This document shows, one piece after another, positions 12,959-60,496 of a DNA stretch of 64,000 bases. This stretch comes from an uncultured Acidimicrobiales bacterium (GTDB taxonomy: Bacteria > Actinomycetota > Acidimicrobiia > Acidimicrobiales > CATQHL01): the NCBI GenBank assembly GCA_958295925.1, contig OY282384.1, forward strand, positions 1,572 through 65,571, in the 5' to 3' direction. A program made the translations under genes and the position numbers. Within the stretch, counting starts at the first letter, position 1. The number at the start of each line of letters is the position of its first letter. Under the pieces are notes generated by a model. The model worked only from the letters and a program-made list of their open reading frames with translations, had not been told where the DNA came from and did no database searches.

Positions 12959-13054
12959 CGCTGCCCCGCAGCCGGTTCCCATCCGAAACCCCGTGGAAGG
13001 AGAAGCGAACCCGGGAGCATAAAGGCAGCTACGCCTATTTAGGAGGTGAGAACC

Positions 13055-44475: not shown

Positions 44476-45462
44476 ATGAAGGTATGGGAGCCGAACCCAA
44501 ACGCCACCCGGGAGCAGAGCAAGGCCTTCGGAAACGCAATAGGCACAATTGACCTCACTCTCAAGAGCATGCTCAAATCTCTAGAACCCCAAGACGAATA
44601 CCTAGAGCTAAGGGCCCACGTCCAGCAACCAGCTGTAGAGCTTGGGAAACTACTGCCCATCGGAAGACACGGAGGGAACCTATTAGCAGAGGTAATCCAA
44701 GACCTCTTGTTGCACCCACTGCAAGCACCCACAGAAGCTAAACCATTCATCAAGCAATTCGAGTTCGAGATGCTTTACTGCAAATGGATCACCGAGCCAA
44801 AAGCAATGCAGACTCTGAGAAGCATGGCCAGAGGCAGCCAACGCGGGATATTCCATCCACGACCGGCAGAAGTAGTACACACTACTAAGTGGCAGCTCCG
44901 CAAAGAGATCCACCCGATGCACGGGATAAAGCACACCGGCGAGGGCTTCTTCCAAACCGAGGAACGCCTCTTCCAAGATTACAAGGAACCGACAATCGAC
45001 ATCGGTGCTTGGGGAAGCCAGCCACTATACGAGACAATCACGGAGGCCGGAGAAACCAAACAATTCACCCTCCTAGAGACAATCCGTTACATTCGGAACA
45101 CAGAAGGAGCCCACAGCGACACCAGTAAGCGGAAGGAGAGGGAAATCGCCCTCATGGACGTATTTGGCGACGCCGACAGCTTCAGCTACCCTCACTGGGT
45201 AATCATCCTGACCGCAGTCTACTTACGGAACGAATACGTCCTAGCACTGGAAAGAGCACCAGAGCATTGGAAACCGTACGTAGACCAGAAGCTAGTCCTT
45301 CACCTGACCGGAAAGTTACCCGAACCAAAGAGGATGCGCGGCGTCCAAGTACTAGAACCCAAGTCAGCAATGACCATTTACCTCCCAGACAACGTCAGCT
45401 CCCTGCCGACAGAAGGACAACGCCACTGGCTACATCGCACCATCACGAACCGCCACAAGTAA
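44476..45462 (+). CDS. hypothetical protein with a HEPN-like Rx4-6H motif (lower GC)
   Basis: 328 aa; IRYIRNTEGAHSD fits RNxxxxH; gene is visibly AT-richer than its surroundings. Confidence 0.5.
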   Translation: MKVWEPNPNATREQSKAFGNAIGTIDLTLKSMLKSLEPQDEYLELRAHVQQPAVELGKLLPIGRHGGNLLAEVIQDLLLHPLQAPTEAKPFIKQFEFEMLYCKWITEPKAMQTLRSMARGSQRGIFHPRPAEVVHTTKWQLRKEIHPMHGIKHTGEGFFQTEERLFQDYKEPTIDIGAWGSQPLYETITEAGETKQFTLLETIRYIRNTEGAHSDTSKRKEREIALMDVFGDADSFSYPHWVIILTAVYLRNEYVLALERAPEHWKPYVDQKLVLHLTGKLPEPKRMRGVQVLEPKSAMTIYLPDNVSSLPTEGQRHWLHRTITNRHK

Positions 45463-45529: not shown

Positions 45530-46135
45530 ATGAGTAAGAAAGACACCCTTAGAAACCACGTGGACACTGAGCTCAGAGCAATCCTAAACTTGACCATAGA
45601 AGAGAATGGAATACTACATTCCATCCCAGGAGAGGAAGAAGTAATCCAGGAAGGAACCATCTCTGTATCAGAACTACTACAGATGCGTTACCCACTCAGA
45701 GGAGAGATTACGAATGCCAGAGGAGGATATACACTCTTCAATTTCAGCTTGCCCAGCAGGAAAGAAGTAAGGAGACTAAAAGACCAGTACTTCCTTGAGC
45801 ACGAAAATATGAGATACGTACGCGTCTCAGAGCTCGAAGCAGCAGATTTTCCACAATTAGAATCTGCACAGTGGAGCAACAAATACACCCTAGTAGAGGC
45901 TACAAGGTACCCACCGGAATTCCGCAACGCGATCAAATTCTCGAACGCACGAGCAACTCTGTACAAAGCCTTGATCCAAGGCTTAGACGACACCGAGGAG
46001 AAACTGGAACTAAAAGGGAATTTCGAGAATGCGTTTACCGCATTCAAGGACCAGATAAAGATCACCATAGACGGAGCGAGCCTCAAGGTAGAATGCTACT
46101 TCAAGGTCGCAAGTAAAAACAAGGAACTAACATAG
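45530..46135 (+). CDS. hypothetical protein (lowest-GC gene in the window)
   Basis: GAAGGAG SD; track ORF 201 aa; no motif recognised. Confidence 0.55.
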   Translation: MSKKDTLRNHVDTELRAILNLTIEENGILHSIPGEEEVIQEGTISVSELLQMRYPLRGEITNARGGYTLFNFSLPSRKEVRRLKDQYFLEHENMRYVRVSELEAADFPQLESAQWSNKYTLVEATRYPPEFRNAIKFSNARATLYKALIQGLDDTEEKLELKGNFENAFTAFKDQIKITIDGASLKVECYFKVASKNKELT

Positions 46136-47859: not shown

Positions 47860-48120
47860 ATGGCAGACTTCGGCACCGCCATCAGCGACCTGAAAGCAGG
47901 ACACCGGGTCACGCGCCCCGGCTGGAACGGCCAGGGCATGTACCTGGAACTGCACAAAGCGGGCCCCGACTGCCCCATGACCAACGACTACATCTTCATG
48001 AAGACCAGCGACGACAACTTAGTACCCTGGCTAGCCAGCCAGACCGACATGCTGGCCGAAGACTGGACCCGAACCCTCAACCCGGAAACCCCGGCCGTAG
48101 CCGAACCGCAGACCAGCTAA
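47860..48120 (+). CDS. DUF2829 / Tad2-like protein (anti-Thoeris family)
   Basis: AAGGAGG 47845-47851, ATG 47860; FGTAISDLKAGHRVTRPGWNGQGMYL..IFMKTSDDNLVPWLASQTDMLAEDW matches the DUF2829 signature. Confidence 0.8.
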   Translation: MADFGTAISDLKAGHRVTRPGWNGQGMYLELHKAGPDCPMTNDYIFMKTSDDNLVPWLASQTDMLAEDWTRTLNPETPAVAEPQTS

Positions 48121-48458: not shown

Positions 48459-49430
48459 ATGCCCATTCACCTAATCGCAATAGGCGGAGCCGTCGGAGTA
48501 GTCACCCTCGGTATCACCGCCCATGCCGCCCTGAAGAAAAGAAACGCCAAGAAACGATTCGAAGCGAAGAAGGAAGGGACCCAGCGCATCGAAGAGGAAA
48601 CGAAGAACGTCCACCGGGACTTCACCACCGCCAGCGAGACCCTGGGCCGAACCCGGGTCAAAGCCACCGAAACCCTGCAGCAAGCCGCCGATTATCTACG
48701 CGGCATAGCCAAGCAGTACGACCTGGAAGCCATCCCCGAAATACCCGACGAAGTCCTAGCGGAATGGACAGAGCTAGAACAGGACATCAAGGTCAGCCTA
48801 GGAGTCAGCACCGCCGCCGGCGCGACCAGCGGAGTAGCCGCCGCCACCCCCAGCGCCTTATATACCGCGGCCGGACTCTTCGGAGTAGCCTCCACCGGCA
48901 CCAGAATCAGCACCCTATCCGGAGCAGCGAACGAAGCTGCACGATTAGCCTGGCTGGGCGGAGGAGCCCTAACCTCCGGCGGCGGAGGAATCGCCGCCGG
49001 AGCCACCATACTGAACGTGGCCTCCCGGGCCAACATAGTACTGGCCCCCATCGCCCTGGCCACCGCCCTCTGGAGCGAGAAGAAAGCCCACGAGGCCGAA
49101 CAGGAAGTCAACGAGAAAATCGGCCAGCTCAATCAGACCGAAGCCAAACTCGGGCTGAAGGCCAGCACCATGCGCACCGCCATGCTGCGCATCAAGGAAC
49201 TCAAGACCGGAATCGAAAACGGCGACAAGGCAGTCCAGGACCTGCTGGCCAAGGCCCGCGCCCTGCCCCTGCCGGCGCTGAACGCCCCCGAGGGCAGCGT
49301 CAACGTCCCAGTGGAACCAGACCTGCACCTGCCCCACCAGGTCTACCTGGGCGCCAAGACGCTACGCAGCCTGATCGAAGAACCGGCCCTGAACAGCGCC
49401 CAACGCGCCATCCTGGAGCAGGAAATATGA
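48459..49430 (+). CDS. TM + coiled-coil + AWLGGG glycine-rich core protein (G family, member 1)
   Basis: ATG 48459 inside track ORF 47853..49430; MPIHLIAIGGAVGVVTLGITAHAALKKR; core STGTRISTLSGAANEAARLAWLGGGALTSGGGGIAAGATIL. Confidence 0.7.
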   Translation: MPIHLIAIGGAVGVVTLGITAHAALKKRNAKKRFEAKKEGTQRIEEETKNVHRDFTTASETLGRTRVKATETLQQAADYLRGIAKQYDLEAIPEIPDEVLAEWTELEQDIKVSLGVSTAAGATSGVAAATPSALYTAAGLFGVASTGTRISTLSGAANEAARLAWLGGGALTSGGGGIAAGATILNVASRANIVLAPIALATALWSEKKAHEAEQEVNEKIGQLNQTEAKLGLKASTMRTAMLRIKELKTGIENGDKAVQDLLAKARALPLPALNAPEGSVNVPVEPDLHLPHQVYLGAKTLRSLIEEPALNSAQRAILEQEI

Positions 49431-49807
49431 CCAGCCACCTGGGAAAGATAATAGGCCTCACGCCGTTAGTCGAAAGCACCCTGCAGTCCATCAGCGAGAT
49501 GTACCAAGCCCATGAGGCTGCCGCCACTCAGCAGGCCTGGATCCAGGAGTATTCCGCGGTCCTGACCCGGAAACTAGAACTGGAACAGGAGCAGATACTC
49601 CGCTACTACGAACTGAGATTCGCCGAGCGGCACGAAGCGCTGCAGGAGTTCTACGACCTGCTGCACCAAGCCGTCGCCAGCGGCAACAACCAGCATCTGC
49701 TGTTCGCCCTGCAGAGCATCCTGGGCATCATCAAGCTGGACCCCCTGGCCGACTACGACCAATTCGTTGTAGCCTACCGAGACACCAACCACGTGCTGGA
49801 GATTTAG
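49427..49807 (+). CDS. small partner protein (S family, member 1)
   Basis: ATGA overlap with 48459 gene; RFAERHEALQEFYDLLHQAV..HVLEI parallels 51026..51403. Confidence 0.65.
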   Translation: MTSHLGKIIGLTPLVESTLQSISEMYQAHEAAATQQAWIQEYSAVLTRKLELEQEQILRYYELRFAERHEALQEFYDLLHQAVASGNNQHLLFALQSILGIIKLDPLADYDQFVVAYRDTNHVLEI

Positions 49808-49808
49808 C

Positions 49809-50249
49809 TTGGAGAAGCTCAAAAGAAGATTACCCCAGGTATTAGTGACTACAGCCGCCACAGCCTTAGTAGCTATGAGCATAAACACGACACTGGAACA
49901 AGGAGACAGTCGACTGCAGCAAGCTTGGCAGGAAGCCATAGACTACGACCGAAGCCGGGAAGGGAGCGAGTACACGAAGACGCAGAACGAGGCCTGGAAG
50001 GAGTTCCTCACGAACAAGAGATACGAACTAGACGAGGAACTAAGAGAAGTAAGACAAGACATAATATCCTTTCAGAGCCGGTACCTCACCTGCTCGAGAA
50101 ACGCAATGGCTGCTGCCAACACAGAAGCCATGCAACAATGCGAGACAATGTGGGGGCCATTCCGAGACAATCAAGACCGCCAGCACCAGCTGCTCGGCGA
50201 GATAGGAATCACCAGACAACTCTACGAAACCGCCACCAAGCGACCGTAA
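49809..50249 (+). CDS. hypothetical secreted/anchored protein
   Basis: GGAG + 8 nt + TTG 49809; hydrophobic N-terminus LPQVLVTTAATALVAMSI. Confidence 0.45.
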   Translation: MEKLKRRLPQVLVTTAATALVAMSINTTLEQGDSRLQQAWQEAIDYDRSREGSEYTKTQNEAWKEFLTNKRYELDEELREVRQDIISFQSRYLTCSRNAMAAANTEAMQQCETMWGPFRDNQDRQHQLLGEIGITRQLYETATKRP

Positions 50250-50286
50250 GAGAAGAACCTGCATTGCAAGAATCAGGAAGACGAAA

Positions 50287-50997
50287 ATGGGATTCGGACG
50301 AGACCTAAGGGCCGCAGCCACCTTCGGAACAGTTCACACCAGGAAGCATAAGAACGCCGAAGACGCGCTAGAAAGGCGGACAGTCATCCACGAAGAAAGA
50401 GTAAGGCAGTTCTACGAAAGCAGAGAACGCCTCCAGACCCACGTCAAAGAAATGAACCAAGCATTCAACCAAGCCCAAGAAGTCCTCCGCACCAAAAAGC
50501 CAATAGGCCAGCCCAATGATTCCAACTCGAACCGAAGAGTAGAAGACCCAGGAATAAACTTCGACGAATTATTCGACATACACATGCTATTCCCCTGGCC
50601 ACCCTTCCTGGGCTTAGGCATAATCACACTGCCGCTCGGAGCAGCCATCGCTGGGAAACAAGAAAGAGAGTTCCTAGAAATGAGCAGGCAATCCGCGGAA
50701 CGGATGACCGCAATAGAAAGCGACTTCAACTCAATCACAGAGAAACTGCCGCCATACCAGGACCTGCAAAGGACAACGGAAGAGCTACAGACACATACGA
50801 GGGAACTAGCAGAAAGCACACCCGAGGCACCGGCAGAGGAAGAGCATGCCTACCAATTAGAACAAGCGATGCTCCAGGCATTACACCTGATACGAGCAAT
50901 CAACGAAGCGACTGGAGAACCAGACACCAGCCAGTTCTACCGCCAGCATAGGCAACAAGAAGGACCCGAGCGAGTAAACGGAGCCATACCACTCTAG
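50287..50997 (+). CDS. divergent G-family member (reduced hydrophobic core, no N-terminal TM)
   Basis: TFGTVHTRKHKNAEDALER aligns with GGLTATKHGSDRIKRAQ; core reduced to PPFLGLGIITLPLGAAIAG. Confidence 0.55.
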   Translation: MGFGRDLRAAATFGTVHTRKHKNAEDALERRTVIHEERVRQFYESRERLQTHVKEMNQAFNQAQEVLRTKKPIGQPNDSNSNRRVEDPGINFDELFDIHMLFPWPPFLGLGIITLPLGAAIAGKQEREFLEMSRQSAERMTAIESDFNSITEKLPPYQDLQRTTEELQTHTRELAESTPEAPAEEEHAYQLEQAMLQALHLIRAINEATGEPDTSQFYRQHRQQEGPERVNGAIPL

Positions 50998-51025
50998 TAA
51001 GAACCACCACGTCAAGAGGAAGCCC

Positions 51026-51403
51026 ATGGTAGCATCAGCAGCGTTCACCGGGGCCAGAATAGCCGGCCCCGCCATAGCCAGCCTACTGTTCAAGTACCTC
51101 ACCCAGGACACCGAGAAGACCGACCTGGAAGTAGCGAAACTACACGCCCAACGCGACGTCCTCATCGCCCAGATCAACGCCGAGCAGCAAGTCCTCCAGT
51201 CCTACATCGACCAACGATTCGCCGAACGCCGCGGCTCCCTGGACGACCTCTTCGGCCTCCTACACCAGGCAGTCGATAATAATAACAACGACCAGATACA
51301 CGTCATGCTAGCCGGGATCCTGAACATCATGCAGCAGAACCCCCTGGAAGAACTCAACGTCTTCATCGAACGCTGGGAGCAAGGGCACATCATAGAGATC
51401 TAA
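51026..51403 (+). CDS. small partner protein (S family, member 2)
   Basis: RFAERRGSLDDLFGLLHQAV..HIIEI. Confidence 0.65.
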   Translation: MVASAAFTGARIAGPAIASLLFKYLTQDTEKTDLEVAKLHAQRDVLIAQINAEQQVLQSYIDQRFAERRGSLDDLFGLLHQAVDNNNNDQIHVMLAGILNIMQQNPLEELNVFIERWEQGHIIEI

Positions 51404-51438
51404 ACAGAGCACAAAGTCTCAAGGAGTCGAATACGACC

Positions 51439-53829
51439 ATGCCATTCTTCATCCCCATCCTCGTTGGTATCGGAATAGCCGCCGCGTTAAGCGGCTCAGG
51501 CGCCGCAACTATCCACGCCAACGATCGTAAGAAGAAAGCCAGGAAACGCCTGAAGCGGAGCGAAACGGAATACACCAACCAAGGCCAGAAGACCCAAGAC
51601 TTCCAAGAACAAGTAAACAAAGCGATCGAGAGCTTGGGCCAAGACCGCATCGACGCCATGCGGACGATCAAGGAGGCAATCACTTTCCTGCAACAGGCCA
51701 GACTGAAGAATCCCAACCTGATCGTTGACGACCTGCTCAAAGACCTCCAGGAGCTGGAGAAGCTAGGCCAGATCTACGACCCCATACTAAGCAAGATAAC
51801 AACCAACGCCGCCGGGACCGCCGGCGGCCTGGCCGTGGGCGCCTTAGCTTCACTAGGAGCCTACGGCCTAGCCAGCACCATCGGCATCGCCTCTACCGGC
51901 GCAGCCATCTCCGGACTCAGTGGAGCCGCCGCCAGCTCAGCAGCCCTAGCCTGGCTAGGCGGAGGGGCACTAGCCGCCGGTGGCGGAGGCGCAGCCCTAG
52001 GCGCCAACCTGATACTGCCAGGAATCGCGATCATCCCCACCATTGCCGCGTGGGGCATACTGGCGGAGTTCCAGGCCGGGAACTTCGAGAAGAAAGTGGA
52101 CGACGAAGTCTCCCGCATCAGAAAGGAAATCAGCGAGCTCAAACTGCTCCATACCAAGTTCGACGGCATCCACCAACGCACCCAGGAAATCAGCCGAGCC
52201 GTAAGAGAACTGAACCAGCTACTCCAGGAACAGCTGAAGACCGAACGGCAGAAAGAAGCCGCCGGCCAGGCGACCAAAGAAGAAAAGTACGCCGGACTAC
52301 AGCGGATCGCCCTGCTGGCCAAAGCACTGCGCGACACCCTGGACATCCCGGTAATCAACAAGAACGGCGAGGCCGCCACCGGACCAGTCCGTTCCCCACA
52401 CCATCCCAACGGCTCACAGGCATCGCTACCCAGCGCCCACCCAACAAGAGTGGAGAGCTATCAAACCACCAAGACCATCACCCGCTCCGGCACCGGCGCC
52501 GCCGTCCCCCAGGTCTTCACCCTGAACAGCGGACTAGCCATCATCGAGTGCGAGCACCGCGGCGAGGGAACCTTCCAGGCCACCCTCGAACCAGCCAACA
52601 AAGAAGCCGGAGACCCGGCCGTAACATTGGCCGACACGGAAGGAAGCATCAAACGACAGCAACTCGTCATGATCCAACCCCACCCGGCCGAAACCGCCGG
52701 AAAGCCATTTCCCAAGACCTACTACCTGAGAGTCAAAGCCAGCGGCAAATGGACCGTAACCATCACCCAGCCCAGGGCCGGAGGCAGCAAAGCCCCCACC
52801 GACTGGAACGGAACAACCACCCCACCCCACCAGCCCTATTTCTCAGCGCCCTTCACCATCGGCTCCCAGCCAATCGCGCTGCATCACGAACAGAAGAACC
52901 CCTCACCATTGAGCGTCACCGCCTACCCCGTGGACGGCAGAGGCGAACCGATCGACATCATCCGCTCGGTGAATCAGAACGGCCCCGCCAGCAACCTGCT
53001 CCTCCAGCCCAACACCGAATACATGCTGGAAGTGGAAGCCGCCAGCGATTGGTCCCTCACCGTCGTCCCGCCGCCACAATCAAAAACGCTTCAGGCCCCC
53101 GACCAAAAAGCCCTGCGCAAGGCCCTGAACGCCGGCCGAAGCGTCGAACGCCGCGGCACCGACAGCCGGAAAACGACCACCACCTTCCACCTGATCCCCG
53201 GCCTAGCCCTGGTCACCACCAAGCACGAAGGCGCCGGACAATTCAAGGTAGTGCTACGCCCCAACACCGCCCCCAACGGCCATTCAACAGGCGCCACCCC
53301 GCAACCAACCCCGGTACCCCACATCGTCCTGATCGACAAGGTAGGCGCAGCCGACACCAACGACCTTTACGTCATCATGAACGAAGCGCCACCGGCACCG
53401 CCAAGCAAGGATACAACTGAAGAGACCAGCCCCACCGTGAGAACCCAGTCCATCCAGACCGGCCCCTGGCCCTGGAAGGACTACACCCTGGAAGTAACCG
53501 CCGACGGCCCCTGGAAAATCAAACTCAGCCAACCCGCCGCCGGCCTGGCCAAGCCCTGCCCCGGCTGGCAAGGCGAAGGCATGCTGCCCGGACGCAGCGT
53601 CATCACCGAGCCGGTCACCTTCCCCAGCGCCAGCCGCCAACTCTTCCTAGAGCACTCCGGCCCCGGAGCTTTCATCGTCGACGCCTACCCGGTGGACGGC
53701 AGCAGCCCGCCGGTCAACCTGGTCCGAACCAAAGGAAAATACGCCAAACGCCCCGAGACCGAACTGAAAGAGAACTTAGAATACCTACTGGAAATCCAAG
53801 CCGAAAGCGACTGGAAACTCAAAGCCTAA
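51439..53829 (+). CDS. G-family N-terminal module fused to a duplicated beta-rich C-terminal region
   Basis: MPFFIPILVGIGIAAAL; STGAAISGLSGAAASSAALAWLGGGALAAGGGGAALG; two C-terminal repeats of about 224 aa (VFTLNSGLAIIECEHRGEGTFQATL / TFHLIPGLALVTTKHEGAGQFKVVL). Confidence 0.7.
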   Translation: MPFFIPILVGIGIAAALSGSGAATIHANDRKKKARKRLKRSETEYTNQGQKTQDFQEQVNKAIESLGQDRIDAMRTIKEAITFLQQARLKNPNLIVDDLLKDLQELEKLGQIYDPILSKITTNAAGTAGGLAVGALASLGAYGLASTIGIASTGAAISGLSGAAASSAALAWLGGGALAAGGGGAALGANLILPGIAIIPTIAAWGILAEFQAGNFEKKVDDEVSRIRKEISELKLLHTKFDGIHQRTQEISRAVRELNQLLQEQLKTERQKEAAGQATKEEKYAGLQRIALLAKALRDTLDIPVINKNGEAATGPVRSPHHPNGSQASLPSAHPTRVESYQTTKTITRSGTGAAVPQVFTLNSGLAIIECEHRGEGTFQATLEPANKEAGDPAVTLADTEGSIKRQQLVMIQPHPAETAGKPFPKTYYLRVKASGKWTVTITQPRAGGSKAPTDWNGTTTPPHQPYFSAPFTIGSQPIALHHEQKNPSPLSVTAYPVDGRGEPIDIIRSVNQNGPASNLLLQPNTEYMLEVEAASDWSLTVVPPPQSKTLQAPDQKALRKALNAGRSVERRGTDSRKTTTTFHLIPGLALVTTKHEGAGQFKVVLRPNTAPNGHSTGATPQPTPVPHIVLIDKVGAADTNDLYVIMNEAPPAPPSKDTTEETSPTVRTQSIQTGPWPWKDYTLEVTADGPWKIKLSQPAAGLAKPCPGWQGEGMLPGRSVITEPVTFPSASRQLFLEHSGPGAFIVDAYPVDGSSPPVNLVRTKGKYAKRPETELKENLEYLLEIQAESDWKLKA

Positions 53830-53864
53830 AGCCAACAGCCCCACGCACTAGAAGGAAGCATCAC

Positions 53865-54257
53865 ATGCCTTTTCACACATTTACCGAGGGCCACGTAGGA
53901 CACCCCACCAGCGAATACAAAGAAGCCCACTGGGTCAAAGCAAAGAACATCCGCATCAACCTGGACCACGTCACCCACGTCTACGAAGCCGACTACGGCA
54001 GCATCGCCACCCACCAACAGAGAACCGAACACTACTTCCACCTGGTAACCGGAGAGACCATCAGAATAGACGAAGAGTACCTGCCGCCCTGCGACAATTG
54101 CCTGGAACCAATCCTACCCCAGGGCATCCAGAACGACCACGGCCTGCGCAAGTGCATCCCCGCCCCCAGCGTCATCGCCCTGCGGGAACGCGCCAAAGCC
54201 GAACACGAACAGCAGATGCAGGAAATCAGCCAAGCCAACTATCCTCAGGCCATCTGA
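53865..54257 (+). CDS. hypothetical protein
   Basis: GAAGGAAG SD; track ORF 130 aa. Confidence 0.55.
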   Translation: MPFHTFTEGHVGHPTSEYKEAHWVKAKNIRINLDHVTHVYEADYGSIATHQQRTEHYFHLVTGETIRIDEEYLPPCDNCLEPILPQGIQNDHGLRKCIPAPSVIALRERAKAEHEQQMQEISQANYPQAI

Positions 54258-54305
54258 ACCCGGTTAGACTGAAAGCACCCCCACCAGCATAAGGAGCCGC
54301 CCGCA

Positions 54306-55196
54306 ATGCCCCTACCCATAATCATCCCAATCGCCATCGGCGCCGTCACCCTGGTCGGCGGCCTCACCGCCACCAAGCACGGCTCTGACCGAATCAAACG
54401 CGCCCAAGCCCATCATCAACAGGAATACGACGCCTACGCCAACCAGCACCAGCACACCGTCGCCGCCCAGCAGGAAATCGACGAGCATTACCTGCCACTA
54501 TTGGGACAGATGCGACTGGACGCGATGGCCGCCGTCCGCGAAGCCATCAAGCTGGCCAACCAAGCCGTTCAACACCACGCCCACGCCCTGCCCGACTCGC
54601 TCCACGACGAATTAGTGGAACTCAAGAACAGCCACGGAGTCTACGACTCACTACTGGACCAGACCACCCTCCCGGGCAGCACCCTGGCTACCCAGGACAT
54701 GGCCCAACTAGGCGCCTCAGGGCCGTCTTCCGCCATCAACGCCATCAGCGCCGCCGGCACCGGAGCCGCCATCTCGGGCTTGGGCAGCCTCTACGCCGCC
54801 AAGGCCGGAATAGCCTGGCTGGGCGGCGGTACTTTAGTCGCCAGCGGAGCCGGCATCGCCGGGGGCGCAGTGCTGCTGGGCGGGTTGGCCGCCGGGCCAC
54901 TCCTGGCCATGGGAGTGCTCAAAGAGATAAAGGCCGGCCGCGTCGAAAAAGAAGTGGAAATCGAAGTGGACCAGCTGCACCGGCAGATGAACCGGCTGAC
55001 CGCGCAGCGGGAACGCATGGACAAGAGACTATTCCGCATCGGCGAACTCCAGGGCACTCTGGACCGGAAGAGCCGGGCCCTGGCCCGCTACACCCAGAAG
55101 CTAGACCTCACCCAAGCGGAGGCGCCCGAGGCGCTACACCAACTAGCTATCGGCATCCGAGAGCTGCAGCAGCTGATCAATGAACCAGTGCACTAA
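54306..55196 (+). CDS. G-family member 4
   Basis: MPLPIIIPIAIGAVTLVGGLTATKHG; GTGAAISGLGSLYAAKAGIAWLGGGTLVASGAGIAGG. Confidence 0.7.
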   Translation: MPLPIIIPIAIGAVTLVGGLTATKHGSDRIKRAQAHHQQEYDAYANQHQHTVAAQQEIDEHYLPLLGQMRLDAMAAVREAIKLANQAVQHHAHALPDSLHDELVELKNSHGVYDSLLDQTTLPGSTLATQDMAQLGASGPSSAINAISAAGTGAAISGLGSLYAAKAGIAWLGGGTLVASGAGIAGGAVLLGGLAAGPLLAMGVLKEIKAGRVEKEVEIEVDQLHRQMNRLTAQRERMDKRLFRIGELQGTLDRKSRALARYTQKLDLTQAEAPEALHQLAIGIRELQQLINEPVH

Positions 55197-55229
55197 GACA
55201 GGACAATACCCAAAGATTGGAGGGCAAAT

Positions 55230-56165
55230 ATGCCGCTACCGCTACTGATACCCATAGCCCTGGGGGCCGCCAGCATCATCACCGGCCTCACAGCCACAAA
55301 ACACGGTGAACATCGCATCAAGAAAGCGCAAGAGCACCTCCAAGCTGAGTATGACCTCTACAAAGCCCAGCACGAAGAGACAGCAGTATCAGTCAACCGA
55401 TTCAACGACGAAGCACTTCCACTCTTTGGACAATCAAGGCTCCATGCCATTGAGAACCTAAGGATGGCCTTCGAGTACACCAACCAACAGTGGGAGGAGA
55501 ACCCAGAGCTCCTCGGCGAGGAAGGGAGAGCCAAACTGGAAGACCTAGCCGCAAAGCAGGAAGCATACAACACTATCGTCGATGAGTATGCCAACGCGAA
55601 GACCGGACTAGGCACCGGGGCACTCGCGACCCTAGGCGCAGCAGGGATCGCCGGCGCGTTTGGCACTGCCGGGACCGGCGCGGCCATCAGCAGCCTAAGT
55701 GGCATCTACGCCGTAAAAGCAGGACTAGCCTGGCTAGGGGGCGGCACCCTAGCCGCCGGAGGGGCCGGAATGGCCGGCGGAGCCAGCCTACTCGGTGGAC
55801 TAGGCGGCATCCCGATACTCGCCATCGGCATCCTCAAGGAGGGAAAAGCCGACAAAGTTGAGAAAGAGGTCGAAAAAGAGGTAGCCAAGCTACAAGAGAA
55901 GAAGCACAAACTTCTGCAGGAAAAGAACAGAATAGACCAACTCAGCCTCGACTCCGCTGAACTCCATTACCGCATGAACCTAGAAGGCAAAGCAGTACTA
56001 AAGGCAATAATGCGCACAGAACGTAGCGAGAAGTGGTTAGCTTGGCTCTACCAAATCTACCAGCTCATCTGGAGACGACCATTCCCAGGGAAAGTGAAGA
56101 ACATCAATCGCATCATCACCCGCGCAGCAACACTACAAGCAACCCTGCAGCAGAAGCTGATCTAG
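55230..56165 (+). CDS. G-family member 5
   Basis: MPLPLLIPIALGAASIITGLTATKHG; GTGAAISSLSGIYAVKAGLAWLGGGTLAAGGAGMAGG. Confidence 0.7.
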   Translation: MPLPLLIPIALGAASIITGLTATKHGEHRIKKAQEHLQAEYDLYKAQHEETAVSVNRFNDEALPLFGQSRLHAIENLRMAFEYTNQQWEENPELLGEEGRAKLEDLAAKQEAYNTIVDEYANAKTGLGTGALATLGAAGIAGAFGTAGTGAAISSLSGIYAVKAGLAWLGGGTLAAGGAGMAGGASLLGGLGGIPILAIGILKEGKADKVEKEVEKEVAKLQEKKHKLLQEKNRIDQLSLDSAELHYRMNLEGKAVLKAIMRTERSEKWLAWLYQIYQLIWRRPFPGKVKNINRIITRAATLQATLQQKLI

Positions 56166-56247: not shown

Positions 56248-58131
56248 ATGACTAACGCCGCCAACAGCCAGGCAGTCCAACAGCCAGGGCATAAATCGCC
56301 TCTTACAGAGCCGATTTATGCCCAAGGTCCCCTCAATCGCGGTGTCTATATCGCCGACAACTACCATTTCCTCCAGTCCTTAAACTCAGAAAGCATCGAC
56401 CTCTGCGTCATCGACCCGCCCTTCGCCAAAAACGAAACCTTCGGCCGCCGCAATCCCAAGAACCCGGACCCGCTGAAACCGCCCCTCTCCGCCCTGGAAC
56501 AGCAGACCGAGCTGGAACTCCTGGCCCGCTGGGGCATCCACAACCAGGAACAAGCCGACCAAGCCGGCATCAACTGGCCCGAAACCCGGTACCACGACAT
56601 CTGGTCCTGGGAGAAGGACATCCATGAGAACTGGCTGACCGACTTGAAGGCCGACCACCCGGCCATCGCCGAGCTGATCGAAGCGGCCGCCCTGACCCAC
56701 AGCGACTCCACCGCCGCCTACCTCTGCTACATGGCAGTCCGCCTGCTGGAGATTCACCGCGTGCTGAAAGCCACCGGGAGCCTGTACCTCCACTGCGACC
56801 ACACCGCCAACGGGTATTTAAGAATGCTGCTGGACGCAGTATTCGGACACCAGAACTTCAGGAATGAGATCACATGGAGAAGAACCTACGCCCACAACGA
56901 ACAGAAACAATATGGCCGCACCAGCGACACCATACTGTTCTACAGCAAGTCAACAGAACATAAATGGAACAGGGTACTAACCCCCTACACAGAGGAGTAC
57001 AAAGGAAAGTATTTCAATTACTCGGACGAGAGGGGAATATTCCAGCCAATCACATTGACCGGAGCAGGAACTACCCGCGCCGAGTCCGGCAGCACCTGGA
57101 AAGGATACAACCCAACAGATTCAGGGAGACACTGGAGCATCCCTAGACGAATCATCCAACAATTAGTTGGAGAAAAAGCAAACCAACTTTCCCTGGAAGA
57201 GAAGATGAACCTACTAGAGCGGGAAGGATACATCTATTGGCCCAAGGAAGGGAACACACCCAGAGTTAAACAATATCTCCACGAGATGAAAGGGACACCA
57301 GTCCAAGACATCTGGACTGACATCGGACCACTCTCTGCACACGCAGCCGAACGCACCGGCTACCCCACCCAGAAACCAGTCGCCCTGTCCGAAAGAATAA
57401 TCAAAGCCTCCACCAACGAAGGCGACGTCGTCCTGGACTGCTTCGCCGGCTGCGCCTACGTCCCCGTCGCCGCCGAAAGATTGAATCGACGCTGGCTGGC
57501 CTGCGACCTCAACCCCCGCGCCTGGACCGTCTTCAAACGCCAATTTTCCAAGCCCTCCCTGGCTCTGCTGGACTGCCAGGAGGAGACCCACGACCAATAC
57601 ACTCTGGGCGAAGGCTTCAACGGCCTGGCCACCGTCCACGGGCCCAACGAACTGCCGGTCCGCACCGACCCGGAGCACAACGGCCACGCCAAGACCAGGA
57701 ACCTGCCCACCCCGGAACGCAAGTTCAAAGTCCCCGCCGCCAACATGCCGAACCAGCTAATGCTGCAGAAATTACTGGAACTCTCCGGCTACCAGGCCTG
57801 GTGCTGCGGCTTCGCCAATCGCAAGGCGGACGGTACAGTAGTCCAGACCACCAACAACTTTCACCTGGACCACATCAACCCTAAAAGCGTCAGCGGCTCC
57901 GGCTGGTCCAACGACATCACCAACCGCGCCCCGCTCTGCCCGCATCACAATATTCAGAAATCCAACCGCAGAGTCGGATTATACGAACTCCGCCAGGAGA
58001 TAGAAAAGGCCGGCGAGCTGCTAGTCGACTCCGTCAGGGAACTGAAAGACCTGGACCAAGCCCACCACCAGGCCCTGCAGCTGCACCTAAAAGCAGAGCT
58101 GGATAAGCAGCAGCCATTCGTACAGCTGTAG
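56248..58131 (+). CDS. beta-class DNA methyltransferase fused to a C-terminal HNH nuclease domain
   Basis: LCVIDPPFAKNE (motif IV); GYPTQKPVAL..VVLDCFAGCAY (motif I region); C-terminal FHLDHINPKS..NRAPLCPHHNIQKSN (HNH). Confidence 0.85.
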   Translation: MTNAANSQAVQQPGHKSPLTEPIYAQGPLNRGVYIADNYHFLQSLNSESIDLCVIDPPFAKNETFGRRNPKNPDPLKPPLSALEQQTELELLARWGIHNQEQADQAGINWPETRYHDIWSWEKDIHENWLTDLKADHPAIAELIEAAALTHSDSTAAYLCYMAVRLLEIHRVLKATGSLYLHCDHTANGYLRMLLDAVFGHQNFRNEITWRRTYAHNEQKQYGRTSDTILFYSKSTEHKWNRVLTPYTEEYKGKYFNYSDERGIFQPITLTGAGTTRAESGSTWKGYNPTDSGRHWSIPRRIIQQLVGEKANQLSLEEKMNLLEREGYIYWPKEGNTPRVKQYLHEMKGTPVQDIWTDIGPLSAHAAERTGYPTQKPVALSERIIKASTNEGDVVLDCFAGCAYVPVAAERLNRRWLACDLNPRAWTVFKRQFSKPSLALLDCQEETHDQYTLGEGFNGLATVHGPNELPVRTDPEHNGHAKTRNLPTPERKFKVPAANMPNQLMLQKLLELSGYQAWCCGFANRKADGTVVQTTNNFHLDHINPKSVSGSGWSNDITNRAPLCPHHNIQKSNRRVGLYELRQEIEKAGELLVDSVRELKDLDQAHHQALQLHLKAELDKQQPFVQL

Positions 58132-58255: not shown

Positions 58256-60496
58256 CTACAGACCAAGCAAGGAAAGCCCGAGACGCTGCCGCGCAACATC
58301 AATCGAACAAATCCTCACCTTCATAACCTGCCCAGCAGCAAAAGCATCTGCCGCCCGCCAATCCTCCCCCGGTGGGATCTCGGTCTTATGCACCAAGCCT
58401 TTCAAACCCAGCTCAAAGCGGACGAAGATACCAAAATCAGCCAGGCCGTCATAAACCCCTACTATCACGTCCCCCACGGAATGACGCTCAGCCAGGAAGT
58501 CCCAAGGGTCCCGGAGACACGGAAGAGTCAACCGCACGTTCCCCTTCTCCGGGTCCCTACCATCCACGGAAGTCACCCGAACAACGACAGGATCGCCCAC
58601 TGAAAGCTCACCCAATTCCTGGGCAGCGAGCATAGAGAGACACTCCGAAGGAACAAGACCATCCACAACCCCCAACGAGACAAAAGCCCCATGCTCAGTA
58701 ATCGAAGACACTCTACTGCTGAACTCCTGGCCCACCTGGAAAGACTGCCGCCGCCCCCGCCGTACAGCCTCAACCCCACCGGCAGTGTCCAACTCCACCC
58801 ACGGACCCCACCCATGCCCGTTCACCGCCCGGACGCGGTAACGAGCACCAGCAACAAGGCTCCGCCCCACCATCGTAGAGAAGGCGCCAGAGCGACCACC
58901 CACTGAAACATCCCGATCCGACTGCCATTCCCCAGCATGATGCTGTACCTCAAAATGCGTCACGGGAGAATAACCGGACCACACCGGCATCTCCCAGGAG
59001 AAGCCATAAGCGTCTCCCCGCTGATAAACCAAGGACAAAGAGCGCACCGCGCCAGGAAAAGCACCTTTCACCTGCACCGACGAACCGTGCCAAGGCGTGG
59101 AATAACCCCGCCACCTTGCCCGAACACGATATTCGTAAAGAAACGTCTCCAGAGGAGGCACCAGCGGTTGATCCACAAAATCGACACCCTCGGTCTCAGG
59201 GAAGACCTCGTCCTCGCTGAACCCAGAAAGAGAAGAGACATACCGGACAACTTCAAAAACGACGCCGTCAGGACGGCAGGACAAGCTCCAAGAAAGGTCG
59301 ACCATCCCACTCCCCGGGCGGACCGCAGCCCGCAGCGGAGACAAACCCAGAACAGAAGAAACCGCCTGCACCAACTCCTCCTCAGTGAGAGAAATCAGGG
59401 CCCAAGGCCCAGGGATACCAACATCGCTAATACCCCGCACCCGAACCGAAAGACCCGACAAGTCGGTTACCTCGTAAGAATAAGGAACATCCGAACAGAC
59501 ACACTCGAACCGGACCGACCCATCGGAGAATTTTTCCACCGGACAAGAACAGGGAACCCCCGGAACGGTTTCGACGGCAGCCCAGGAACCAGAGAAAGAA
59601 TCCCAAGACTCCAACTCATACGCGCGAGTAGGAAGGATCTGCCGCGGCCCCAAGTCGCCAGAGAGTCCCCACTTCAAACCGAAAAGGAAATTTTGATTCT
59701 CCGGATCAAAGGACAGCCCAGCCGACTTCAACGCCAGCAGCGGAACCGCAGAGACACTGGTCACCTCAGCAAAGCGCGCAGCGCCAAAAACCGCCCGCTC
59801 CTGCTTATAAGCCTTCAAAGCCCATTCACACCGCCACGCCGTCTGACGACTATCTAAAGGCGGCGAAAGCCAACGAATCCGATGCTCACCCCGATTGCGA
59901 GTATCAGAATTACGAACCTTCTTCCAATGTTCGTCATAAATGAGAACAAACTCAGAGGAACGATACTCAACGACCCTAGAGCTATAGGCCCCTGGATTCC
60001 GAATATCATTACGCCCCGCCATATACAAGGCATTCTTAGCAACAACCTCATGTTGAAACTGACGAAGCGAGGGATTGTAAGTCATACCAACGTAACCAGT
60101 CTCCAGCTGGTAGACAAAGAATCCTTCACGAAGCAATGGCTTACCCTTGCACCCAGGGACAATCCCATCAACCGGCTCAACAGAACAAACATTGCTAGTG
60201 CAACTGGACGGCTTGCCCCCACAGGAGAGATCAAGCGTCACCAACCACCCAGCACAGAACGGACACATTGGAGAATCAACTTCCAGATAATGCTTTTCCT
60301 TGTGATCGGGATCGACACAAGCACGAGCGCAAGCGCCACAGACAAACTCGGACTGCGACTTAGCAGAACCGCACATGGCACAATCCAGGAGCAACAAAGG
60401 GTCCAGCAACCCCAAAACACGGTTCATCTCAGGAAGATGAGAACTCTCCCCAGCCAGGAACCGCCGCGACCAGACGTCACGATACTCAGTAGTCAT
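58256..60496 (-). CDS. multidomain protein: zinc ribbon + GIY-YIG nuclease + FN3-like repeats + two S1 RNA-binding domains
   Basis: 746 aa. CAMCGS..CGACARAC; FFVYQLETGYVGMTYNPSLRQFQHE (GIY-YIG); YEYRVRARW and ARYRVRAVNGHGWGPW (FN3-like); GQEFSSRVSSITEHGAFVSL and VGDVIVGVYDGLADFGIFVRF..GLVHKTEI..GQVMKVRICSIDVARQRLGLSL (S1). Overlapping + ORFs are Arg-rich junk. Confidence 0.75.
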   Translation of the reverse strand: MTTEYRDVWSRRFLAGESSHLPEMNRVLGLLDPLLLLDCAMCGSAKSQSEFVCGACARACVDPDHKEKHYLEVDSPMCPFCAGWLVTLDLSCGGKPSSCTSNVCSVEPVDGIVPGCKGKPLLREGFFVYQLETGYVGMTYNPSLRQFQHEVVAKNALYMAGRNDIRNPGAYSSRVVEYRSSEFVLIYDEHWKKVRNSDTRNRGEHRIRWLSPPLDSRQTAWRCEWALKAYKQERAVFGAARFAEVTSVSAVPLLALKSAGLSFDPENQNFLFGLKWGLSGDLGPRQILPTRAYELESWDSFSGSWAAVETVPGVPCSCPVEKFSDGSVRFECVCSDVPYSYEVTDLSGLSVRVRGISDVGIPGPWALISLTEEELVQAVSSVLGLSPLRAAVRPGSGMVDLSWSLSCRPDGVVFEVVRYVSSLSGFSEDEVFPETEGVDFVDQPLVPPLETFLYEYRVRARWRGYSTPWHGSSVQVKGAFPGAVRSLSLVYQRGDAYGFSWEMPVWSGYSPVTHFEVQHHAGEWQSDRDVSVGGRSGAFSTMVGRSLVAGARYRVRAVNGHGWGPWVELDTAGGVEAVRRGRRQSFQVGQEFSSRVSSITEHGAFVSLGVVDGLVPSECLSMLAAQELGELSVGDPVVVRVTSVDGRDPEKGNVRLTLPCLRDPWDFLAERHSVGDVIVGVYDGLADFGIFVRFELGLKGLVHKTEIPPGEDWRAADAFAAGQVMKVRICSIDVARQRLGLSLLGL

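Follow-up and report, generated by a model that had tools for sequence, protein, structure and literature searches.

What do several diverged copies of one glycine-rich helical protein do side by side, and do they act for or against the cell that carries them? The question is raised by a 7.7-kb array at 48459-56165 of the window, which is the whole stretch of DNA analysed (64,000 nucleotides from an uncultured Acidimicrobiales bacterium). The array is co-oriented and tightly packed, with gaps of 1-48 bp between genes and an AGGAG-like site upstream of nearly every gene. It holds four diverged copies of a gene here called G, one putative relic of it, and two genes for a small partner, S. All features described below are on the forward strand.

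Layout of the array

G1 (48459-49430; 323 aa) has an N-terminal anchor, a helical stalk and a Gly/Ala core (about residues 112-205, nt 48792-49073). It matches the family HMM with E 2.7e-67 and the PADLOC model PDC-M09A with E 1.7e-25; its nearest relatives beyond the window, P0113 and P0117, are 41% identical. The ATGA overlap reported in the preliminary description of this locus joins G1 to S1 (49427-49807; 126 aa), its small helical partner (S-family HMM E 3.5e-36), which is 42% identical to a protein encoded downstream of a G1-like gene in locus L094. One bp past S1 lies X (49809-50249), an ORF of 146 aa that begins with a hydrophobic helix. X has no match in Pfam, PHROGs, PADLOC or NCBIfam, and its kinship to S or G is no better than chance; its score is attained by 58 and 29 of 500 shuffles, respectively.

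G3 (51439-53829; 796 aa) is preceded by S2 (51026-51403; 125 aa), its small helical partner (S-family HMM E 2.1e-37; 44% identity to an S gene product encoded upstream of a G3-like gene in L081). The family domain of G3 covers residues 1-334 (51439-52440; PDC-M09A E 4e-31; family HMM E 2e-80) and includes the core at residues 120-214 (nt 51796-52080); the nearest relatives, P0002, P0004 and P0008, are 39% identical. The remainder is a C-terminal extension (52450-53829) of two tandem repeats of about 230 aa (52450-53130 and 53131-53826). This extension had been described as duplicated and beta-rich. The duplication is genuine (30% identity between repeats, E 4e-27); for the beta-rich part there are weak fold hints (Big_6 E 0.0013; Fn3 chain 1wj3 E 0.043), according to which the repeats are probably Ig/Fn3-like beta-sandwiches.

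Between G3 and G4 lies Y (53865-54257), a 130-aa ORF with a CxxC...C pattern. It has no match in Pfam, NCBIfam, PADLOC, PHROGs or PDB, and shows no kinship to S. G4 (54306-55196; 296 aa; PDC-M09A E 5.6e-14; family HMM E 2.8e-65) has its core at residues 132-208 (nt 54699-54929), and G5 (P0001; 55230-56165; 311 aa; PDC-M09A E 1.6e-25) at residues 125-205 (nt 55602-55844). Both lack an adjacent S.

Five related genes had been proposed in the array. Four of them are significant paralogs, with BLASTP E values between 2e-5 and 9e-42: G4 and G5 are closest (44% identity, E 9e-42), followed by G3-G4 (E 1e-29), G3-G5 (E 3e-16), G1-G4 (E 2e-11), G1-G3 (E 2e-6) and G1-G5 (E 2e-5). The family HMM recovers all four with E 1e-65 to 2e-80. 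The fifth, Gdeg (50287-50997; 236 aa), is at most weakly supported as a member: it is a coiled-coil protein whose only hydrophobic segment is short (residues 95-125), has neither the N-terminal anchor nor the Gly core, and gives no significant BLAST similarity and an hhalign probability of 5%. Its score against the family HMM is 11.4 bits, which is attained by none of 500 local shuffles; the two stretches that match, helix 1 and helix 3, lie in collinear order, and PDC-M09A gives E 0.017. Gdeg is possibly, at best, a decayed relic of the G family.

Protein architecture

Each of the four G proteins has an anchor at the N-terminus, a long stalk of helices and a Gly/Ala core of about 77 aa that is devoid of charge and bears the motif STGxAIS.LSG...LAWLGGG. 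The motifs first read from the sequence (MPLPxxIPIAxGA, the basic patch and GTGAAIS.LSG...AWLGGG(A/T)L..GG.G.A.G) are all present. On average, the 77 core residues include 0.3 K/R and 0.03 D/E. Sequences are 73% identical at the centre of the core and 19% identical in the stalks, and the invariant residues are nearly all Gly, Ala, Trp or Leu inside the core. At the N-terminus, a hydrophobic helix without charges precedes the basic patch; there is no Sec signal.

The AF2 model has an antiparallel stalk with pLDDT above 90 over residues 30-120 and 210-300 (pTM 0.70). In G5, helices 24-126 and 203-306 are confident, and residues 1-21 and 127-202 have low confidence. The hydrophobic core has pLDDT below 50; membrane topology and any pore are therefore conjecture. 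S is a 125-aa four-helix protein without a hydrophobic head, and the S2 model has four helices at pLDDT 75.7.

The core motif is conserved far beyond this element and is near-invariant among homologs from genomes of 28-67% GC. Since these homologs also come from many phyla, T-poor composition does not account for the core, whose pattern is neither chance nor a composition artefact.

Family identity and distribution

The G family has no model in Pfam, NCBIfam or PHROG, in agreement with the preliminary description, which could name no domain. PADLOC-DB is the exception: all four G proteins match PDC-M09A (E 1e-14 to 4e-31). The family is thus already listed there, as gene A of the phage-defence candidate PDC-M09. 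This candidate is one of 145 chosen for their position inside BREX, DISARM or type I RM loci, and has 380 instances in RefSeq.

At 50% identity, 6,678 representatives match with E<=1e-3 and 2,406 with E<=1e-30. Matches are spread over Campylobacterota, Cyanobacteria, Pseudomonadota, Bacillota, Chloroflexota, Bacteroidota and others; G is thus a large, widespread bacterial family with a predicted inner-membrane location. Homologs bear variable C-terminal domains (PLD nuclease, SWIB, Sel1, EF-Tu-D2). The fusions to PLD nuclease, SWIB and EF-Tu domain 2 argue that G remains in its producer, on the cytoplasmic face of the membrane.

The partner protein

S1 and S2 are paralogs, as had been supposed (35% identity, BLASTP E 4e-14). 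Partner linkage was scored in 80 species-representative loci. An S homolog of about 135 aa adjoins G in 30 of these (HMM E 6e-27 to S1 and 8.5e-30 to S2). In 29 loci, G is adjoined by a protein of about 500 aa that matches PDC-M09B or PDC-M40B; the C-terminal 90 or so profile positions of this protein align to S1 (E 3e-9) and S2 (E 9e-11). S is a stand-alone version of the PDC-M09B C-terminal domain; the PDC-M09B HMMs give no match to S1 or S2 themselves. The N-termini of PDC-M09B are variable, with LRAT/NlpC in 3 of 26.

G and S co-evolve: G-G and S-S distances correlate with r = 0.88 over 32 pairs, and the permutation maximum is 0.32. Each of S1 and S2 clusters with the partner that accompanies the closest relative of its own G, and the closest G3 relatives have an S gene immediately upstream of G. 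The conserved pairs, as read from these relatives, are G1-S1 and S2-G3. The order of member followed by partner, which had been assumed for both, therefore holds for G1 and S1; S2 pairs with the downstream G3 and not with Gdeg.

Genomic context

A type IIG restriction-methylase enzyme is encoded on one side of the array and a methylase-HNH protein on the other. The upstream type IIG/ISP-like enzyme (39134-44467) is a 1,777-aa fusion of Mrr nuclease, SF2 helicase and methylase (PADLOC REase_MTase_IIG E 1.1e-90; Pfam Mrr_cat_2, ResIII and Helicase_C). The downstream gene (56248-58131) encodes a fusion of N6/N4 DNA methylase and HNH nuclease (PF01555 E 1.3e-36; HNH E 0.0016; PHROG HNH E 3e-6; PADLOC MTase_II E 1.1e-56). 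The array begins 339 bp past a gene for a Tad2-like (anti-Thoeris) domain protein (47860-48120; PF11195 E 1.5e-23). The Tad2-like and methylase-HNH flanks had been identified correctly from the outset. The region is rich in methylases and has few recognisable housekeeping genes.

In other genomes, recurrent neighbours of G are TerB, CxxCxxCC, WYL regulators and an RNxxxH (HEPN-like) protein; variable effector-type domains are also encoded nearby. Many homologs are found in housekeeping surroundings, for example with ndhF/ndhD and thioredoxin in Nostocales or, in Chloroflexota-type contigs, with ilv/leu genes and tRNA synthetases. Secretion genes do not recur near G homologs.

Possible roles

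The leading explanation, to which a probability of roughly 0.45 is given, is a membrane-acting conflict module in which G would be a membrane-perturbing effector and S a cytoplasmic regulator. G would be anchored in the inner membrane of its own cell by the N-terminal helix, in keeping with the basic residues after it (positive-inside rule). The Gly/Ala/Ser/Thr 'glycine-zipper' hairpin would also lie within the membrane, while the two long, fast-evolving helical arms would form a cytoplasmic stalk. This stalk would be the docking site of S or, in the longer PDC-M09B with its membrane anchor, of the S domain; docking would hold G inactive or relay a signal. When triggered, for instance by infection, G proteins might pack via their invariant small-residue faces (STGTAIS.LSG / LAWLGGG.L..GG.G.AGG) and open or destabilise the membrane; the resulting loss of membrane potential would amount to abortive infection or would exclude a competing element. 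Several diverged G proteins with different stalks and add-on domains may widen the range of triggers.

The S linkage and co-evolution, the invariant charge-free core and the confident stalk are consistent with this explanation. The preliminary description had offered pore-forming toxins or membrane-disrupting defence effectors; the latter gain indirect support from the PDC-M09A matches, the RM and methylase flanks, and the TerB, WYL and effector-type neighbours. Variable C-terminal domains of G, variable PDC-M09B N-termini and the CxxCxxCC and RNxxxH neighbours agree with the conflict module. However, PDC-M09 is a candidate system by context only, association with defence genes is moderate, the core is modelled poorly, S1 and S2 escape the PDC-M09B HMM, and G4 and G5 have no S. 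Anti-defence genes (Tad2, several methylases) are present in the window as well, so the conflict role could run in either direction.

One such direction is a counter-defence or exclusion device serving a mobile element, in which G in the host membrane blocks competing phages or plasmids (superinfection exclusion) or disables membrane-bound immune effectors of the host. The adjacent Tad2 and methylase genes would fit, as would the four diverged copies in 7.7 kb. None of the 80 comparison loci has as many: there is a single copy in 71 of them, and the richest, L041, has three HMM matches (95, 312 and 117 aa). BFVD contains at least one probable phage homolog (probability 1.0, E 0.015), and relatives occur on 10 IMG/VR contigs. 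These 10 are drawn from 2.9 million viral contigs, however, and the family is overwhelmingly chromosomal: tblastn finds none in 50,697 GenBank phage records and, across 72,556 plasmid records, no more than two matches, both weak and partial. The mobile element in the window is itself putative, and such a device is rather improbable. A phage structural or lysis role, with tape-measure-, holin- or spanin-like Gly-rich segments between coiled coils, is largely refuted. PHROG matches to a tape measure (G5, E 0.0027), a minor tail protein (G3, E 5e-4) and an Rz-like spanin (G3, E 0.017), and BFVD matches to tape-measure proteins (E 0.2-1), are all non-significant, and no clear holin match appears either; G proteins are about 300 aa, and their homologs form solitary two-gene chromosomal modules with neither tail nor lysis genes around them. 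A secreted ClyA/Nhe/XaxAB-type alpha-pore-forming toxin, with G and S as two components opening pores in other cells, is very unlikely. G fits in general shape, as a long bundle of helices with a hydrophobic head, and NheB (E 0.0012 over G3 residues 161-256), XaxA/YaxA (E 0.23-0.34 in a PDB profile search) and SmhB and AhlB (Foldseek top 50) appear among the matches. None is significant: NheB scores 18 bits against a cut-off of 500, SmhB and AhlB have E 0.2-0.5 and TM-scores of at most 0.24, and a head-only profile finds no alpha-pore-forming toxin in the best 60 of 81 PDB matches (E up to 10). The N-terminus, the cytoplasm-type C-terminal domains of homologs, the lack of recurrent secretion genes and the headless S also speak against export.

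Comparison with known systems

A housekeeping role in membrane stress is a serious rival to the conflict module, if an unlikely one. Here G would be a scaffold for membrane shaping or repair, S its regulator, and the array a mere expansion of paralogs on a large accessory element. The conserved synteny trx-ndhF-ndhD-G-S (L020 and L074), the other housekeeping surroundings and the recurrence of TerB, a stress-linked domain, agree with such a role. Against it, distribution is patchy across phyla, stalks evolve fast, and the family is found embedded in RM, BREX and DISARM loci; fused nuclease or variable domains and variable partner N-termini are typical of conflict systems rather than housekeeping.

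In the maintenance role, G would work like PspA/Vipp1 or like the trunk and paddle of bacterial dynamin-like proteins. Dynamin-like helical or paddle matches recur (DLP_helical E 0.05, LeoBC 0.006, LeoA 0.058, LeoC 0.007), and genuine LeoA and LeoBC genes adjoin G in a few loci. The matches are all far below significance, and G differs from dynamin-like proteins in having no GTPase domain. The named system to which the family belongs is PDC-M09; the array is a good experimental lead, but the kind of system it represents is not new.

Organisation of the gene cluster

Nine co-oriented, tightly packed ORFs lie on the + strand between 48.4 and 56.2 kb, with gaps of -4 to 48 bp; nearly all have an AGGAG-like site upstream of the start. 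Four of these are paralogs encoding glycine-zipper membrane proteins: G1 (48459-49430), G3 (51439-53829), G4 (54306-55196) and G5 (55230-56165). G4 and G5 are 44% identical (BLASTP, E 9e-42), and all other pairs are related as well (G3-G4 1e-29, G3-G5 3e-16, G1-G4 2e-11, G1-G3 2e-6 and G1-G5 2e-5). S1 (49427-49807) and S2 (51026-51403) encode small proteins that are paralogous to each other (E 4e-14); the ATGA overlap described between G1 and S1 is present in the sequence. X (49809-50249) and Y (53865-54257) have no family match, and searches of Pfam, PHROGs, PADLOC and NCBIfam return nothing for either. X and Y as divergent S proteins were rejected on shuffle-controlled HMM scores.

A six-frame search of the whole 64-kb window with the family HMMs recovers only G1, G3, G4 and G5 (E 1e-65 to 2e-80), both S genes and, marginally, the gene at 50287-50997. 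The preliminary description counted five related genes; BLASTP and the family HMM support this for G1, G3, G4 and G5, but not for the fifth, which shows no significant BLAST or profile-profile similarity to the family. This gene (Gdeg, + strand) scores 11.4 bits against the family HMM, a value reached by none of 500 local shuffles, and its two HMM-matched pieces are collinear with helices 1 and 3. Because it has neither the N-terminal anchor nor the Gly core, it is treated as a possible relic of the G family.

G3 differs from its paralogs in a 460-aa C-terminal tail. This tail is a tandem duplication of two ~230-aa units (30% identity, E 4e-27), as had been noted; of the beta-rich fold also ascribed to it, there are weak Ig/Fn3 hints only. 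A promoter and terminator scan of the region was uninformative; the + strand is too T-poor for T-tract terminators to form.

Identity and distribution of the G family

The G proteins have no significant match in Pfam, NCBIfam or PHROGs, and none to the Gly-zipper families of Pfam. The statement that they correspond to no named domain thus holds for these collections, but not for PADLOC-DB: the HMMs for gene A of the phage defence candidate PDC-M09 (PDC-M09A; PDLC04406/04407) match G1 (1.7e-25), G3 (4e-31), G4 (5.6e-14) and G5 (1.6e-25). Gdeg reaches only E 0.017. The PDC systems are 145 phage defence candidates, listed as untested in their source paper and nominated because they are embedded in BREX, DISARM or type I restriction-modification loci; PDC-M09 is cassette CAS_00055, with 380 RefSeq instances (Payne et al., bioRxiv 10.1101/2024.01.29.577857). 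No functional study turned up in literature searches for PDC-M09, for the motif string or for combinations of keywords. The family is therefore already catalogued as PDC-M09A, yet unstudied.

A profile search of 1.84 billion representatives, counted as 50%-identity clusters, finds 6,678 G-family members at E<=1e-3 and 2,406 at E<=1e-30. At one genome per species, the phyla represented include Campylobacterota, Cyanobacteria, Pseudomonadota, Bacillota, Chloroflexota and Bacteroidota. This is a very large family, with thousands of clusters across most bacterial phyla, for which neither Pfam nor NCBIfam has a model and of which no structure has been solved. A scan of JGI metagenomes with G5 found no relative.

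Architecture and conservation of the G proteins

Each G protein has the layout given in the preliminary description. An uncharged hydrophobic N-terminus (MPLP...) is directly followed by a basic patch, ~100 helical residues, a ~77-residue charge-free core of Gly, Ala, Ser and Thr, and ~100 more helical residues; the two long flanking helices are referred to as the stalk. Among 63 diverse family members, the core carries on average 0.3 K/R and 0.03 D/E, and ~3 basic residues are found both directly past the N-terminal helix and directly past the core. Judged from the sequence, the lack of a charged n-region and the adjoining basic patch indicate that the N-terminus is a membrane anchor, not a signal peptide.

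An AlphaFold2 model of G5, built from a 63-sequence alignment, has a pTM of 0.70; helices 24-126 and 203-306 are mostly above pLDDT 90, and residues 1-21 and 127-202 are below 50. Mean identity is 73% at the core centre, 43% in the N-terminal helix and 19% in the stalks, a pattern inverted relative to most proteins. Except for Met1, all invariant columns lie inside the core. Far better conservation of a membrane-embedded core than of the soluble part is the usual mark of a direct mechanistic role in the membrane.

The + strand of the window is extremely T-poor (2-7% T at third positions), which would favour Gly and Ala codons. The core as a composition artefact is nevertheless rejected, since the motif STGTAIS.LSG.AATNATLAWLGGG.LA.GG.G.AGG is retained in homologs from genomes of 28% to 67% GC; the core is more than a by-product of T-poor codon usage. 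The closest homolog loci have no such T-poor skew.

Searches of the PDB with profiles return coiled-coil noise, designed proteins and borderline matches to paramyxovirus F. The last of these is the most consistent signal, covering the fusion peptide and heptad repeat A over ~75 residues (E 0.003-0.01, borderline), and is probably driven by composition and heptad pattern. Foldseek searches with G5 give no match at E<=0.001 in the PDB or BFVD. The helical or paddle regions of dynamin-like proteins (LeoABC/BDLP) match weakly (E 0.006-0.06); of the GTPase, trunk and paddle that define these proteins, the GTPase domain is absent from G.

The partner protein S

Genes around 80 homolog loci were clustered. 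In 30 of these loci a ~135-aa protein adjoins G, usually directly downstream, and is homologous to S1 and S2 (HMM E 6e-27 and 8.5e-30). In 29 of 80, G adjoins a ~500-aa protein that matches PDC-M09B, the second gene of the PADLOC candidate, or PDC-M40B. This larger partner has one to three hydrophobic segments and a variable N-terminal part, which begins with an LRAT/NlpC domain in some proteins (3 of 26). Its C-terminal ~90 positions align to S1 and S2 (profile E 3e-9 and 9e-11); S is thus the free-standing form of the PDC-M09B C-terminal domain.

The PDC-M09B HMMs have no match at E<=1 among the window proteins, S1 and S2 included, so PADLOC would not call PDC-M09 here. Since S1 and S2 align to the C-terminus of PDC-M09B-type proteins and are missed by these HMMs, the window carries a truncated, short-partner variant. 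A single-sequence homolog search with S2 finds only S2 itself; an alignment-based search succeeded. S2 is modelled as a four-helix protein (pLDDT 75.7), for which Foldseek gives no PDB match at E<=0.001.

Pairwise identities of G and S are correlated (r = 0.88 over 32 pairs; permutation maximum 0.32). The nearest relatives of G1 (P0113 and P0117, 41%) have S downstream, and this S is closest to S1 (42%); those of G3 (P0002, P0004 and P0008, 39%) have S directly upstream, and this S is closest to S2 (44%). Gene order and S similarity in these relatives define G1->S1 and S2->G3 as the conserved modules. The earlier picture of two G-type genes each followed by its partner is consequently correct for G1 and S1; S2, which had been assigned to the preceding gene at 50287, belongs with G3 downstream.

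G4 and G5, which lack an S partner, are most closely related to one another. G1 and G3 both have closer relatives in other genomes than among their array neighbours, so the array brings together old lineages and did not arise by a recent burst of tandem duplication. With four strong G copies in 7.7 kb, it exceeds every one of the 80 comparison loci: 71 carry one copy, four carry two, and a single locus (L041) has three HMM matches, of 95, 312 and 117 aa.

Several of these features are new. S is recognised as a domain in its own right, co-evolving with G and also present in PDC-M09B; a short G-S form escapes the PADLOC models for gene B; S2 is paired with G3; the array combines several lineages; and G3 is fused to a duplicated, probably beta-type domain.

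Genomic context

A CxxCxxCC protein also recurs near G, at 27 loci, as does a TerB-domain protein, at 14; WYL/WCX regulators and an RNxxxH (HEPN-like) protein are further recurrent neighbours. The long form is a recurrent operon of TerB-domain protein, CxxCxxCC (PF03692) protein, G and PDC-M09B, found in GTDB genomes at L004, L007, L034, L052, L053 and L061 among other loci, often with the WYL/WCX regulators and the RNxxxH protein at its side. Additional C-terminal domains occur in about one in four of the top-scoring G homologs (P0028, P0067, P0100 and others). Most of these additions are unannotated; the rest include PLD-like nuclease, SWIB, Sel1 and EF-Tu domain 2. Such variable additions argue for a cytoplasmic C-terminus and fit the pattern of conflict systems.

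Among 149 flanking proteins, PADLOC identifies PDC-S03, further PDC-M09B, Bunzi BnzB, LeoA/LeoBC, a restriction enzyme, DRT and DpdF. Across these 80 other loci, defence neighbours of G are moderate in number. Neighbours in protein cluster C11 were considered as dynamins and rejected; they are translation GTPases.

In the window, a 1,777-aa type IIG/ISP-like enzyme combining Mrr nuclease, SF2 helicase and methylase (39134-44467, + strand; PADLOC REase_MTase_IIG, E 1.1e-90) lies ~4 kb upstream of the start of the array, which is not inside a multi-gene system. Two unannotated ORFs (44476-45462 and 45530-46135) directly follow this enzyme. A Tad2-like (anti-Thoeris) gene (47860-48120, + strand; PF11195, E 1.5e-23) ends 339 bp before the array, placing an anti-defence gene next to candidate defence genes. 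The array ends 82 bp before a gene for a 627-aa N6/N4 DNA methylase with a C-terminal HNH nuclease (56248-58131, + strand), possibly a restriction-modification enzyme in a single chain or else a self-protecting nuclease.

Genes of mobile-element type are found at 15589-16842, 17418-19844, 19769-20893, 31058-31930 and 28555-30456. They include a C5 cytosine methylase, another N6/N4 methylase, a DUF5906 (primase/helicase-type) protein, for which tblastn finds no match in phages, and an 808-aa protein with two HATPase_c domains beside a weak response-regulator-like ORF. Most other long ORFs of the window have no Pfam match. One of the few minus-strand genes (58256-60496) encodes a 746-aa protein with an unusual combination of a Cys-rich N-terminus, two S1 RNA-binding domains and an Fn3 domain. 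ARAGORN calls a 95-nt tRNA-Arg(TCT) on the minus strand (13581-13675) inside a + strand ORF (13046-14764); this may be a spurious, intron-containing or atypical tRNA.

Over positions 1-64000 the + strand has an AT skew of +0.35 (A:T ~68:32) and a GC skew of -0.12. The asymmetry persists through the well-supported minus-strand gene at 58256-60496, whose protein is accordingly rich in V, F, S, G and W. The asymmetry therefore belongs to the DNA strand rather than to the direction of transcription, and the closest homolog loci lack it. The contig that contains the window measures 643,545 bp.

Proposed function and alternatives

Family identity, architecture, conservation pattern, partner linkage, co-evolution, variable add-on domains and the local restriction-modification context are shown directly by the analysis. 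From these sequence-level features, G and S are proposed to form a membrane-acting module with abortive infection or exclusion as its outcome (probability roughly 45%). The N-terminal helix and the glycine-zipper segment would hold G in the inner membrane of the producing cell, and both arms of the stalk would extend into the cytoplasm. The stalk would be the docking site for S or for the S domain of PDC-M09B. A trigger would then free or rearrange G, allowing the invariant small-residue faces to pack between molecules; the packed protein would breach or destabilise the membrane, resulting in abortive infection or exclusion.

The helical bundle and hydrophobic head of G recall alpha-pore-forming toxins, and a likeness to ClyA/YaxAB was suggested initially. 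Homology to these toxins is not supported and was rejected, with no significant sequence or fold match: NheB gives E 0.0012, scoring 18 bits where the cut-off is 500, XaxA/YaxA give E 0.23-0.34, and SmhB and AhlB give Foldseek E 0.2-0.5 with TM-scores <=0.24. A profile of the hydrophobic head and its flanks gives 81 PDB matches (E up to 10), the best 60 of which include no such toxin. G as a secreted toxin of ClyA type is very improbable; the anchor-type N-terminus and the cytoplasm-type C-terminal fusions of homologs speak against an exported soluble protein, and no recurrent secretion genes are seen near G in homolog loci. The chance that G is a phage structural or lysis protein is slighter again. 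Its matches to PHROG tape-measure, minor-tail and spanin families are weak (E 5e-4 to 0.017); they include tape-measure phrog_167 (E 0.0027, over 150 aa only) and an Rz-like spanin matched by G3 (E 0.017). BFVD tape-measure proteins have E >=0.23, holin families in Pfam, PHROGs and NCBIfam do not match G, and tail genes do not adjoin the cluster in the window or in homolog loci. G as a tape-measure, holin or spanin protein is rejected for want of a significant match.

A non-immune role for G in membrane stress is a less likely alternative that should be kept in mind. Many G loci are plainly housekeeping, with ndhF/ndhD in Nostocales and tRNA synthetases in Chloroflexota-type contigs. In two cyanobacterial genera (Nostocales loci L020 and L074) the order thioredoxin, ndhF, ndhD, G, S is conserved, which points to vertical inheritance next to housekeeping genes and is a reason to retain this alternative. 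That G serves a mobile element, in exclusion or counter-defence, is rather doubtful. Viral collections contain few members of the family, with 10 loci in 2.9 million IMG/VR contigs and one probable homolog in BFVD, and megablast of window positions 44-60 kb finds no match in GenBank phages or PLSDB plasmids. With a typical member (P0216), tblastn gives no hit in phages and two in plasmid records, both weak and partial; in this search the low-complexity filter probably masks the core.

A more far-reaching form of the abortive-infection or exclusion proposal is tentative. G-S might be a new pan-bacterial, cell-autonomous switch for membrane perforation or fusion. A membrane-anchored helical stalk would carry an extremely conserved glycine-zipper hairpin resembling a fusion peptide, and the cytoplasmic adaptor S, evolving together with G, would gate it and could also tether diverse enzymatic effectors, as in the PDC-M09B forms. 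The four-copy array on the T-poor 643-kb contig could then be a multi-specificity exclusion or abortive-infection battery.

If the proposed defence function is correct, the bacterial immune repertoire gains both a membrane effector of a new type and a novel adaptor domain, and one PADLOC candidate is validated; if the housekeeping explanation is correct, the G family is an unrecognised membrane-stress factor. The S domain recurs both free-standing and fused behind variable enzyme domains. True G-S pairs, invariant residues for mutation and an easily cloned two-gene short form provide experimental handles, and tractable homologs exist in Acinetobacter, Budvicia, Pseudomonas and Helicobacter. 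The G-S array is a moderate-to-good experimental lead.

Comparison with known systems

The nearest known system is PDC-M09, itself a catalogued candidate and not an understood one. G1, G3, G4 and G5 match its gene A, and homologs elsewhere adjoin PDC-M09B-matching proteins. In contrast to PDC-M09, the window has four to five A-type genes instead of one, a duplicated, probably beta-type tail on one of them (G3), and a free-standing S of ~125 aa in place of a full-length PDC-M09B.

Lambda RexAB and other two-part abortive-infection systems, often carried on mobile elements, combine a small cytoplasmic partner with a membrane protein whose activation collapses the membrane potential, the logic also proposed for G-S. 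RexB crosses the membrane four times and has no helical stalk, and RexAB and G-S are not known to be related in sequence or fold; the likeness would be one of functional analogy only. In glycine-zipper toxins and bacteriocins such as microcin V, CdzC/D and the T6SS effectors Tse4/Ssp6, helices pack through recurring small-xxx-small motifs within a segment free of charges, and the assemblies that form can conduct ions. Unlike G, these toxins are short secreted peptides or effectors that lack a stalk, and no homology to them was detected; microcin V matches one PDC-M09B-type neighbour weakly (E 8e-4).

G shares with the ClyA family (ClyA, Nhe/Hbl, XaxAB/YaxAB and AhlB/SmhB), some of which have two or three components, an elongated helical bundle and a hydrophobic membrane-inserting head. 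Unlike these toxins, it has an N-terminal membrane anchor and no secretion signal, and its hydrophobic segment is a ~77-aa Gly/Ala zipper rather than a beta-tongue or short helical hairpin; G probably acts on the producer's own membrane.

The paramyxovirus F alignment covers the last hydrophobic third of the core and the following helix, and the remaining architecture of G is not shared. The likeness is best read as convergent design, not homology: as in this class I viral fusion protein, a small-residue membrane-inserting peptide is joined directly to a long coiled coil.
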